From Escherichia coli (GTDB lineage Bacteria; Pseudomonadota; Gammaproteobacteria; Enterobacterales; Enterobacteriaceae): a stretch of 64,000 nucleotides of DNA. Positions 25,967 to 64,000 of this stretch are shown piece after piece (position 1 is the stretch's first letter; each line of letters starts with the position of its first letter). The notes below the pieces were generated by a model. That model was given only the letters and a program-made list of their open reading frames with translations, ran no database searches and was not told the origin of the DNA. Position numbers and translations under genes: made by a program. Location: NCBI RefSeq assembly GCF_013315695.1, contig NZ_CP054353.1, one strand, 5' to 3'.

Positions 25967-26512
<546 letters not shown>

Positions 26513-26521
26513 GAGAATTGC

Positions 26522-27313
26522 ATGAGCAGTAACTTCAGACATCAACTATTGAGTCTGTCGTTACTGGTTGGTATAGCGGCCCCCTGGGCCGCTTTTGCTC
26601 AGGCACCAATCAGTAGTGTCGGCTCAGGCTCGGTCGAAGACCGCGTCACTCAACTTGAGCGTATTTCTAATGCTCACAGCCAGCTTTTAACCCAACTCCA
26701 GCAACAACTCTCTGATAATCAATCCGATATTGATTCCCTGCGTGGTCAGATTCAGGAAAATCAGTATCAACTGAATCAGGTCGTGGAGCGGCAAAAGCAG
26801 ATCCTGTTGCAGATCGACAGCCTCAGCAGCGGTGGTGCAGCGGCGCAATCAACCAGCGGTGATCAAAGCGGTGCGGCGGCATCAACGACGCCGACAGCTG
26901 ATGCTGGTACTGCGAATGCTGGCGCGCCGGTGAAAAGCGGTGATGCAAACACGGATTACAATGCAGCTATTGCGCTGGTGCAGGATAAATCCCGCCAGGA
27001 TGACGCAATGGTGGCATTTCAGAATTTCATCAAAAATTACCCTGATTCAACTTTCCTGCCAAACGCCAATTATTGGCTGGGTCAGTTAAACTACAACAAG
27101 GGTAAAAAAGATGATGCGGCGTACTATTTTGCTTCGGTAGTGAAAAACTATCCGAAGTCACCAAAGGCTGCAGATGCGATGTTTAAAGTCGGCGTCATCA
27201 TGCAGGACAAAGGTGACACCGCAAAAGCGAAAGCCGTATACCAGCAGGTTATCAGTAAATACCCTGGTACTGATGGTGCTAAACAGGCGCAAAAACGTCT
27301 GAACGCGATGTAA
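26522..27313 (+). CDS. cpoB: cell division coordinator CpoB (YbgF)
   Basis: 263 aa with signal peptide, coiled coil and C-terminal TPR. Confidence 0.95.
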   Translation: MSSNFRHQLLSLSLLVGIAAPWAAFAQAPISSVGSGSVEDRVTQLERISNAHSQLLTQLQQQLSDNQSDIDSLRGQIQENQYQLNQVVERQKQILLQIDSLSSGGAAAQSTSGDQSGAAASTTPTADAGTANAGAPVKSGDANTDYNAAIALVQDKSRQDDAMVAFQNFIKNYPDSTFLPNANYWLGQLNYNKGKKDDAAYYFASVVKNYPKSPKAADAMFKVGVIMQDKGDTAKAKAVYQQVISKYPGTDGAKQAQKRLNAM

Positions 27314-27477: not shown

Positions 27478-27553
27478 GGGTCGTTAGCTCAGTTGGTAGA
27501 GCAGTTGACTTTTAATCAATTGGTCGCAGGTTCGAATCCTGCACGACCCACCA
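27478..27553 (+). tRNA. lysT: tRNA-Lys (UUU)
   Basis: 76 nt gggtcgttagctcagttggtagagcagttgacttttaatcaattggtcgcaggttcgaatcctgcacgacccacca. Confidence 0.97.
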
Positions 27554-27688
27554 ATCGCTAAGGTGGAAGCGGTAGTAAAACGTGAAGGATAACGTTGCGT
27601 CAGCAACGGCCCGAAGGGCGAGACGAAGTCGAGTCATCCTGCACGACCCACCACTAACATAGTTAGTTGTAGTATCCAGCGTAGTATT

Positions 27689-27764
27689 GGGTGATTAGCT
27701 CAGCTGGGAGAGCACCTCCCTTACAAGGAGGGGGTCGGCGGTTCGATCCCGTCATCACCCACCA
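27689..27764 (+). tRNA. valT: tRNA-Val (UAC)
   Basis: 76 nt gggtgattagctcagctgggagagcacctcccttacaaggagggggtcggcggttcgatcccgtcatcacccacca. Confidence 0.97.
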
Positions 27765-27766
27765 CC

Positions 27767-27842
27767 GGGTCGTTAGCTCAGTTGGTAGAGCAGTTGACTT
27801 TTAATCAATTGGTCGCAGGTTCGAATCCTGCACGACCCACCA
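27767..27842 (+). tRNA. lysW: tRNA-Lys (UUU)
   Basis: Identical 76-nt Lys tRNA sequence. Confidence 0.97.
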
Positions 27843-27893
27843 CTAATGACGGTGGGTTCGGTGGAAGTAGTTTGTAGTATCCAGCGCAGTATC

Positions 27894-27969
27894 GGGTGAT
27901 TAGCTCAGCTGGGAGAGCACCTCCCTTACAAGGAGGGGGTCGGCGGTTCGATCCCGTCATCACCCACCA
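27894..27969 (+). tRNA. valZ: tRNA-Val (UAC)
   Basis: Identical 76-nt Val tRNA sequence. Confidence 0.97.
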
Positions 27970-27972
27970 CTC

Positions 27973-28048
27973 GGGTCGTTAGCTCAGTTGGTAGAGCAGT
28001 TGACTTTTAATCAATTGGTCGCAGGTTCGAATCCTGCACGACCCACCA
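27973..28048 (+). tRNA. lysY: tRNA-Lys (UUU)
   Basis: Identical 76-nt Lys tRNA sequence. Confidence 0.97.
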
Positions 28049-28096
28049 ATTTTAAAGATTGGTTCCGAGTAGAAATCTTTCAGGTAACACCCGTAT

Positions 28097-28172
28097 GGGT
28101 CGTTAGCTCAGTTGGTAGAGCAGTTGACTTTTAATCAATTGGTCGCAGGTTCGAATCCTGCACGACCCACCA
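28097..28172 (+). tRNA. lysZ: tRNA-Lys (UUU)
   Basis: Identical 76-nt Lys tRNA sequence. Confidence 0.97.
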
Positions 28173-28205
28173 TCCTGAATGATTAAAGCAGCATAATCCC
28201 GCAAG

Positions 28206-28281
28206 GGGTCGTTAGCTCAGTTGGTAGAGCAGTTGACTTTTAATCAATTGGTCGCAGGTTCGAATCCTGCACGACCCACCA
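28206..28281 (+). tRNA. lysQ: tRNA-Lys (UUU)
   Basis: Identical 76-nt Lys tRNA sequence. Confidence 0.97.
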
Positions 28282-28285
28282 ATGT

Positions 28286-28312
28286 AAAAAAGCGCCCTAA
28301 AGGCGCTTTTTT
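28286..28312 (+). terminator. rho-independent terminator after lysQ
   Basis: aaaaaagcgcc ctaa aggcgctttttt. Confidence 0.8.
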
Positions 28313-28416
28313 GCTATCTGCGATACTCAAAGATTCGAACCTGCTGCAGGTTCGAGTTGAGCGCAGCGAAACAACGGAGCCGCTCGCGGCGACGGCCCGT
28401 AGGGCGAGCGAAGCGT

Positions 28417-28471
28417 GTCATCCTGCACGACCCACCAATGTAAAAAAGCGCCCTAAAGGCGCTTTTTTGCT
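28417..28471 (+). repeat. direct repeat: tRNA 3'-end fragment plus second copy of the lysQ terminator
   Basis: gtcatcctgcacgacccaccaatgtaaaaaagcgccctaaaggcgcttttttgctat nearly duplicates 28262-28316. Confidence 0.8.
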
Positions 28472-28595
28472 ATTCAGGTATCCTCAATTTCACTTTGTAA
28501 ACCTGATGACATCGTCAGAGCTTACTGTGCAAGCAACTCTACGTCGGTGGAATTAGGCGTAATTCGAGTGACTTTTCCCCACCATTCGACTATCT

Positions 28596-63169: not shown

Positions 63170-63330
63170 GGATGGTAAAAATCTCATTTACACGCTAGTA
63201 TCGGCTTAACCACTAAACACTCTAGCCTCTGCACCTGGGTCAACTGATACGGTGCTTTGGCCGTGACAATGCTCGTAAAGATTGCCACCAGGGCGAAGGA
63301 AGAAATGACTTCGCCTCCCGTATCTGGAAA
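63170..63330 (+). promoter_or_regulatory. moaA 5' leader; candidate molybdenum-cofactor (Moco) riboswitch
   Basis: Long structured leader ending in gcctccc ... ggaaagg before the ATG; position matches the recalled Moco RNA motif; boundaries approximate. Confidence 0.5.
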
Positions 63331-63337
63331 GGTGTAC

Positions 63338-64000
63338 ATGGCTTCACAACTGACTGATGCATTTGCGCGTAAGTTTTACTACTTGCGCCTGTCGATTACC
63401 GATGTGTGTAACTTTCGTTGCACCTACTGCCTGCCGGATGGCTACAAACCGAGCGGCGTCACCAATAAAGGCTTTCTTACCGTCGATGAAATTCGCCGGG
63501 TTACGCGCGCCTTCGCCAGTCTGGGCACCGAAAAAGTCCGTCTGACGGGCGGTGAGCCGTCTTTACGCCGCGACTTTACCGATATCATCGCCGCTGTGCG
63601 AGAAAACGACGCTATCCGCCAGATTGCGGTCACCACCAATGGTTACCGTCTGGAACGCGATGTGGCGAACTGGCGCGATGCTGGACTTACTGGCATCAAC
63701 GTCAGCGTTGATAGCCTTGACGCTCGCCAGTTTCATGCCATTACCGGGCAGGATAAATTCAACCAGGTCATGGCAGGAATCGATGCTGCATTTGAGGCCG
63801 GTTTTGAGAAGGTCAAAGTCAATACCGTGCTGATGCGTGATGTTAATCATCATCAGCTCGACACCTTTCTGAACTGGATCCAGCATCGTCCCATCCAGCT
63901 GCGTTTCATCGAACTGATGGAGACGGGCGAGGGCAGCGAGCTCTTCCGTAAGCATCACATCTCTGGTCAGGTTCTGCGTGACGAGTTACTGCGTCGCGGC
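63338..64000 (+). CDS. moaA: GTP 3',8-cyclase MoaA, N-terminal part (3' end outside window)
   Basis: [31 protein letters not shown] radical-SAM motif; open to window end, so absent from the ORF track. Confidence 0.95.

Follow-up and report, generated by a model that had tools for sequence, protein, structure and literature searches.

The DNA downstream of the lysT tRNA operon in the Escherichia coli stretch analyzed here (64,000 nucleotides, hereinafter the window) raises the question of why the last tRNA gene, lysQ, is followed by a second copy of its own 3′ end and terminator. An earlier note on this sequence had offered two readings, the scar of an integrase-mediated insertion and excision or a partial tRNA duplication, and had added that the arrangement may be ancestral to E. 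coli. Partial duplication and ancestry both hold, and the scar does not: the duplicated lysQ end and terminator form a single 156-bp RtT unit (Rfam RF00391), a tRNA-linked repeat that is already known, is ancestral, differs in copy number among strains, and was not left behind by a mobile island. For the explanation in its entirety, which joins an RtT unit with copy-number recombination, transcriptional read-through, and fail-safe termination, we estimate a probability of about 0.88.

Seven tRNA genes in the order Lys-Val-Lys-Val-Lys-Lys-Lys were detected by ARAGORN in the 64-kb window (27478-28281); they constitute the lysT operon, which sits between cpoB and nadA. A repeat search of the window recovered the second tRNA 3′ end and its identical terminator as a direct repeat of 54 nt, 100% identical, at 28264-28317 and 28420-28473 (156-nt spacing). 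An exact repeat of 54 nt cannot be of chance origin. Each copy comprises the last 18 nt of the tRNA-Lys gene (ATCCTGCACGACCCACCA) followed by AATGTAAAAAAGCGCCCTAAAGGCGCTTTTTTGCTAT. The inverted T-arm previously noticed between the copies was likewise borne out: on the opposite strand, GATTCGAACCTGC (28332-28344) is identical to the T-arm in all five tRNA-Lys genes and, these genes aside, it has no other occurrence in the 64 kb (0.00 expected by chance). An additional tRNA-Lys pseudo-3′ end, CGAGTCATCCTGCACGACCCACCA, overlooked in the earlier note, is present at 27630-27653 in the lysT-valT spacer. The features of the locus are as follows.

28206-28281 (+): lysQ, the tRNA-Lys(UUU) gene that closes the lysT operon (ARAGORN; 79.2 bits with the Rfam tRNA model).
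28264-28317 (+): direct repeat copy 1, the last 18 nt of lysQ plus a 36-nt trailer with terminator 1 (repeat family D4, 100% identical to copy 2).
28286-28312 (+): terminator 1, palindromic, AAAAAAGCGCC-CTAAA-GGCGCTTTTTT, with GC stem, A/U extensions, and U6 tract (from the sequence; inverted repeat I1).
28318-28419 (+): RtT body, the unique 102-nt part of the 156-bp unit (RF00391 match at 28312-28437).
28332-28356 (+): T-arm palindrome, i.e., the inverted T-arm (28332-28344), a T, and the forward T-stem plus T-loop half GCAGGTTCGAG (28346-28356) (from the sequence and its inverted repeats).
28356-28372 (+): small hairpin GUUGAGCGCAGCGAAAC, consisting of a stem, a tandem GA internal loop, a stem, and a triloop (RNAalifold compensatory changes).
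28375-28407 (+): conserved RtT core, hairpin H1 (CGGAGCCG-CUCG-CGGCGACG) and then GGCCCGUAGGGCGA (core pattern, alignment, and covariation).
28420-28473 (+): direct repeat copy 2, a tRNA-Lys pseudo-3′ end (28420-28437) plus terminator 2 (hairpin 28442-28468) (repeat search).
27554-27653 (+): short RtT unit of ~100 nt without terminator in the lysT-valT spacer, pseudo-3′ end at 27636-27653 (Rfam RtT, 60.6 bits; repeat family D3).

The RtT unit begins 1 nt past lysQ, on the same strand as the tRNA, and nadA lies directly downstream of it. It is laid out as an intrinsic terminator, a structured body of 84 to 102 nt (the T-arm palindrome, the small hairpin, and the conserved H1-GGCCCGNAGGGCGA core), and 18 nt that repeat the 3′ end of tRNA-Lys; positions 28420-28437 are identical to 28264-28281, the unit thus ending in the 3′ end of the upstream tRNA, CCA included. 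A simple terminator scan flagged neither of the two obvious terminators, and we suspect that stem extension consumed the T-run. The minimum free energy (MFE) fold of 28282-28475 was dominated by mutual pairing of the two palindromic terminators and is uninformative on co-transcriptional structure.

The window copy matched RF00391 at 28312-28437 over the full model (1-130) with 44.7 bits (E=6.8e-08), 0.3 bits short of the gathering threshold of 45, while the short unit linked to lysT scored above that threshold (60.6 bits, match at 27485-27653). Orthologous E. coli copies that differ from the window copy by about 4 nt scored 46.7 to 51.6 bits, among them the lysQ unit of K-12 (46.7) and the two copies of a two-unit E. 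coli allele (51.6 and 46.7). In K-12, the lysV unit of the valU operon reached 47.3 bits and the four units of the tyrT locus more than 130 bits each. RefSeq annotates an "RtT sRNA" at exactly this site in many other E. coli genomes; the genome identical to the window has no RefSeq RtT annotation at the lysQ-distal site, presumably because of the 0.3-bit shortfall. Sub-threshold Rfam matches to YrlA, Plastid-ycf2, AgrB, and sraL were dismissed as artefacts of the tandem tRNAs or of the terminator hairpin.

Alignment of Lys-long, Lys-short, and Tyr units revealed a common core, AACG-hairpin-ACGRCCCGWAGGGYGA, followed in all three by GAGTNATCC and then by the T-stem 3′ strand, acceptor 3′ strand, and CCA of the local tRNA. 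Within the window the core pattern occurs only at 27606-27621 and 28392-28407 (0.01 expected). Tyr, Lys, Arg(ACG), and Pro units of other genomes also end in the 3′ end of their own upstream tRNA. The outer helix of the family is not formed in the window copy: cmscan flagged its outer pairs as non-canonical, and in the E. coli copy, as read from the sequence, the 5′ segment CAAAGAU pairs with AUCCUGC at only 5/7 positions. To judge by its sequence, the lysQ-distal copy of E. coli is a degenerate RtT member.

The RtT family was first known from the tyrT operon, where a 178-bp unit is repeated, reportedly 3.14 times according to Egan and Landy in 1978; the rtT RNA is said to have been treated by Bösl and Kersten in 1991. 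Like the tyrT-tyrV RtT/rttR repeats, the lysQ unit immediately follows a tRNA gene, shares the orientation of that gene, and belongs to a class of tandem units each ending in the last 18 to 19 nt of the tRNA including the CCA; it shares with them the homologous core AACG-hairpin-ACGRCCCGAAGGGYGA and an inverted T-arm copy on the 5′ side, and it is matched by the same covariance model. It differs from them in that its tRNA-derived parts come from tRNA-Lys rather than tRNA-Tyr, in its length (156 rather than 178 bp), and in the intrinsic terminator that each unit carries, which places the body behind the terminator and not inside the primary transcript. The outer helix is moreover degenerate (44.7 versus 130+ bits), and an ATG-initiated tpr-like open reading frame (ORF) is lacking, the unit having only a TTG-started Arg-rich frame. 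This 28-aa frame (LSAAKQRSRSRRRPVGRAKRVILHDPPM, 28357-28443, +) runs through the core and, when the core codons are compared, seems to be in the frame of the protamine-like tpr gene annotated within the RtT unit of tyrT. We rejected it as a Tpr-like peptide: it has a TTG start, no ribosome-binding site was seen, and the GC-rich core would plausibly account for its Arg codons. A search of the literature for RtT, descriptions of intergenic repeats, and lysQ-nadA small RNAs (sRNAs) returned almost nothing relevant.

Three lysQ-distal alleles were found in E. coli, with 0, 1, or 2 units in exact 156-bp steps. In strain MARGA_3, lysQ is followed by one terminator and then by nadA-upstream sequence (0 units); the window and K-12 have one unit, and FDAARGOS_1288 has two. 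Using a query composed of the RtT body, terminator 2, and nadA-upstream DNA, covered at ≥80%, at least one unit adjoining the DNA upstream of nadA was detected in 2,510 of 5,425 complete E. coli genomes (46%), the unit being absent from about 54%. The comparison with K-12 recommended in the earlier note showed the same layout after lysQ as in the window, and again after the paralogous lysV. The long units of K-12 at lysQ and lysV differ by 1 nt in about 190, which points to exchange between the two operon ends. At the lysV site, a new unit starts after the second terminator (CTGCGAT...) and breaks off (K-12 stretch L007, 2022-2030; stretch L004, from 3269), so that the array there amounts to "1 plus a fragment" and recalls the 3.14 repeats at tyrT.

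The unit starts and ends with the same 54 bp and hence behaves as a tandem repeat. From the structure of the alleles, the copy number (0 to 3) would shift whenever the 54-bp repeats undergo unequal homologous recombination or slippage, and gene conversion probably homogenizes the lysQ and lysV ends.

Each short unit is a precise indel with the tRNA 3′ end on one side and the pseudo-copy of that end on the other, the K-12 sequence after the pseudo-CCA being the window sequence after the true CCA; as a consequence, E. coli strains show widely differing spacer lengths in the lysT operon. K-12 has four short units of ~100 nt without terminator, after lysT, lysW, lysY, and lysZ, and the window has one, after lysT. 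Their positions in the K-12 stretch (L005) are as follows.

1131-1230: short unit.
1420-1517: short unit.
1724-1821: short unit.
1946-2044: short unit.

The number of tRNA-Lys genes in the lysT operon itself ranges from 2 to 7 among E. coli strains. K-12 also has ~28 extra nt upstream of nadA (aaatgacgcatcctgcacattaggcgta, L005 about 2434-2461, corresponding to about 28558 in the window), flanked by the short duplication attaggcgtaa and holding CATCCTGCAC, which resembles a tRNA-Lys pseudo-3′ end.

A core scan with one genome per species (≥120 stretches) extended the comparison to other enterics. Among the matches listed, long units with duplicated terminators adjoin nadA in Pantoea sp. IMH (three units), Enterobacter sp. 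Bisph1, and Erwinia persicina, and gltX/valU in Citrobacter, Leclercia, Pseudocitrobacter, Erwinia, and Acerihabitans. Klebsiella sp. BIGb0407 has three tandem units on one contig and another unit that adjoins cpoB at a contig end, with nadA out of view. Pluralibacter, Enterobacter cloacae, and Phytobacter carry a short RtT unit before a single terminator. The presence of the arrangement in several genera indicates that it is old within the Enterobacterales, which bears out the suspicion that it predates E. coli.

Could the repeats nevertheless be the borders of a lost element? An integrase-borne element would have entered the lysQ 3′ end, duplicated the tRNA end, and later been lost, leaving attL/attR-like repeats. 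Such insertions classically leave direct repeats of a tRNA 3′ end that begin in the T-loop, as are seen here; the att sites of P4-like islands and of Haemophilus HP1/S2 likewise consist of a direct repeat from the T-loop to or past the CCA, and a tRNA-Lys-like sequence is attP in the Haemophilus phage S2/HP1. However, here there is no element, integrase, or island between the repeats. They are just 102 nt apart, and the body holds no ORF of more than 35 aa, barring a mechanical 111-aa TTG frame over lysQ and both copies, so that an integrase remnant is absent as judged by ORF size. The intervening DNA belongs instead to a chromosomal repeat family, with homologs after tRNA-Tyr, Arg, Pro, and 5S rRNA genes, and it is this family-wide homology of the body that contradicts an att scar. 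The alleles differ by whole 156-bp units only, the arrangement is conserved across genera, and neither integrase, island, or prophage DNA beside the repeats, nor an occupied-versus-empty polymorphism, nor a matching phage attP was found in the E. coli genomes and the phage collection searched. We thus consider the scar highly improbable. An accidental tandem duplication confined to this locus and unrelated to any other repeat would also yield a tandem structure with exact 54-bp borders, but it is already refuted by the family homology and is the least credible of all the explanations: the core is common to tyrT, lysV, the short Lys units, and other genera, and a second copy of it is present in the same window (27606-27621).

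The search for an island between the repeat copies was made with two anchors. A 3.1-kb query covering the whole operon had failed for this purpose and was dropped, the repeated tRNA genes having broken BLAST joining (117 genomes reached 80% coverage); it was replaced by a synthetic join of 1.1 kb of pal-cpoB and 1.1 kb of nadA, for which a single match means that the anchors are no more than about 1.6 kb apart. The anchors were joined as a single match in 5,406 of the 5,425 complete E. coli genomes, which therefore have no larger insertion between cpoB and nadA. One of the 19 anchor-split genomes was inspected (strain IH5): lysT is joined there to the region upstream of yrdA (L128, 10138-10608), the junction, in place of the remaining operon and nadA, having a sequence that we take to resemble the rrnD leader. 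The junction reflects either a large rearrangement or a misassembly, not an island between the repeats. In the phage collection, no record covered more than 32% of the unit query, and the covered part was the tRNA gene only; the unit thus occurs in no phage of the collection. Full-length matches in the plasmid collection were to E. coli records that range from 50 kb to 4.9 Mb; most have the size of a chromosome, and from these sizes the records look like mislabelled chromosomal DNA.

At the RNA level, the 9-bp T-arm palindrome hairpin is kept in 17 Lys-type long units from several genera, and the small hairpin at 28356-28372 shows compensatory changes (RNAalifold, alignment A1; pair 49-61, CG:7 and UA:6; pair 52-58, GC:11, AU:4, and GU:2). 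Across 135 distinct elements, H1 alternates between U-A (88), U.G (18), and C-G (7), and H3 takes the form of 44 different stems. The outer stem varies with the upstream RNA and is intact in the Lys units of Klebsiella and Pantoea and in the Tyr, Arg, Pro, and 5S units, as follows.

tRNA-Tyr: GGGGAAGGAU/AUCCUUCCCC.
tRNA-Arg: GGGAGGAU/AUCCUCCC.
tRNA-Pro: AGAGGAU/AUCCUCU.
tRNA-Lys (Klebsiella and Pantoea units): GCGGGGU/AUCCUGC.
5S rRNA: GGCAGUU/AACUGCC.

The G.U pairs and compensatory changes seen in these alignments would fit selection acting on an RNA of the tRNA strand. The MFE z-score of the window unit is weak (−1.84). A pairing of GGGCG with the acceptor 3′ strand proposed by RNAalifold was set aside as probably coincidental, as it would fail in Tyr units.

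The identical terminators after lysV and lysQ are Rho-independent; the full-length valU transcript of ~438 nt fits a stop at the first lysV terminator, and RNase P removes the terminator by a U/G cut 3 nt after the CCA (PMC4176162). Use of terminator 1 has been demonstrated at lysV and is presumed for lysQ, and no read-through product was reported from the northern blots (PMC4176162). Since the unit lies behind a terminator whose use has been demonstrated at lysV, its transcription probably depends entirely on read-through and is halted by the second terminator. Terminator 1 would accordingly end most operon transcripts; the read-through RNA would run 156 nt further and halt at the identical terminator 2, which may act as a fail-safe in front of nadA. 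The end of such a read-through piece would mimic the tRNA 3′ end perfectly, down to its CCAAU|G processing context. By analogy with tyrT, the segment could be excised like a tRNA trailer, and processing could release a lysQ-distal RtT-type RNA product. It would in this respect resemble 3′ETS-leuZ, a tRNA-operon spacer RNA, the lysQ unit being a candidate for another by-product of a tRNA operon transcript that tRNA processing enzymes could release. The degenerate outer stem and the absence from about half of the strains indicate that the E. coli copy is probably dispensable; the absence from about 54% of the genomes argues against an important function.

These considerations bear on two explanations in which the unit would be kept for its function. 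The duplication might have been selected as a double terminator shielding nadA (and xapR at lysV) from the strong tRNA promoter, the body being a mere spacer. Two identical tandem terminators do lie directly upstream of the nadA regulatory region, the same design recurs at lysV and in other genera, and the palindromic terminator could act in both directions. There is a precedent in rrnB T1-T2, the tandem intrinsic terminators ending a stable-RNA operon, which similarly place two Rho-independent terminators in series after very strong transcription; unlike them, the lysQ terminators are exact copies that a repeat unit has produced, in numbers that differ from strain to strain. However, a single terminator suffices in about 54% of E. 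coli genomes, as it does in Pluralibacter, Enterobacter cloacae, and Phytobacter, where the short RtT unit precedes it, and a conserved structured body would be superfluous for termination. Selection for double termination as such is hence a possibility that we regard as doubtful. We think it rather improbable that the unit encodes a functional small RNA, i.e., an RtT-type regulatory or sponge RNA made from read-through transcripts and acting in trans. The rtT of tyrT has been proposed to take part in the stringent response, a response to stress is reported for rtT and rttR, differential expression is reported for the RtT RNAs of Klebsiella, and the covarying hairpins and G.U-containing outer stems of the family are consistent with selection on RNA. 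The window copy, on the other hand, sits behind a working terminator, has an outer stem that is degenerate, occurs in only about half of the strains, and has no known target or phenotype. The preferred reading remains that of an RtT repeat unit whose copy number changes by recombination and whose second terminator would stop occasional read-through.

The RtT core is also found at the 3′ ends of 5S rRNA genes. In Siccibacter, Superficieibacter, Rahnella, Phytobacter, and E. coli, a core that ends in a copy of the 5S rRNA 3′ end follows 5S genes. The rrfH-aspU spacer of E. coli E110019 contains a 140-nt unit bounded by 20-nt repeats that is absent from K-12 (L129, 630-822, versus L130, 277-328). 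The 5S-linked unit has a short inverted copy of the 5S 3′ end (GGCAGTT), the same core, and a 20-nt direct copy at its end (AACTGCCAGGCATCAAATTA); it scores 34 bits on the RtT model, below the gathering threshold. Sequence similar to it is present in 3,983 of 5,426 E. coli genomes, and it was unannotated in the eight matches listed.

Rather than a tyrT-specific sRNA, RtT units may represent one aspect of a broader class of structured modules at the 3′ ends of stable-RNA genes, a view that we put forward very tentatively. Such a module may consist of an H1-GGCCCGAAGGGYGA-H3-UCAU core and an outer stem whose 3′ strand copies the 3′ end of the upstream RNA, be it tRNA-Tyr, Lys, Arg, Pro, or also 5S rRNA; it may be gained and lost as precise units bounded by 18- to 20-nt repeats, and it may be homologous to dispersed terminator-associated repeats of Gammaproteobacteria. 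The covariation, tolerant of G.U pairs, would point to an RNA-level role, which may be, e.g., 3′-end processing or protection of stable-RNA precursors, or else it might stem from a mode of spread that has gone unrecognized. The breadth of RtT may have been described earlier, e.g., by Rudd in 1999.

The suspicious duplication of a tRNA 3′ end at lysQ is thus an ordinary, already catalogued repeat and matters little in itself. It does call for caution in that tRNA-end repeats found beside enterobacterial tRNA-Tyr, Lys, Arg, Pro, and 5S rRNA genes usually represent RtT-type units rather than island scars. The wider pattern, in which a conserved core invariably terminates in the 3′ end of the local stable RNA and which includes the unannotated 5S-linked form, merits a dedicated study.

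The RtT core was observed as well in dispersed intergenic repeats of Alcanivorax sp. 24, Pseudomonas, Pectobacterium, and Brenneria, and of Alishewanella and Arsukibacterium. These repeats do not lie beside tRNAs and are sometimes in tandem with a 74-nt period; their layout is an A-run, a hairpin, a T-run, AACGTYGC-loop-GCRACGGCCCGAAGGGYGA, a variable hairpin, TCAT, and an A-run. At least some of them include a terminator-like hairpin, and five such loci compared with Rfam matched no family at E<0.01.

Two further Rfam matches in the window are unrelated to the RtT unit, a CpoB/ybgF intercistronic thermometer at 26413-26551 (+, 142 bits) and a Moco riboswitch at 63206-63350 (+, 103 bits).
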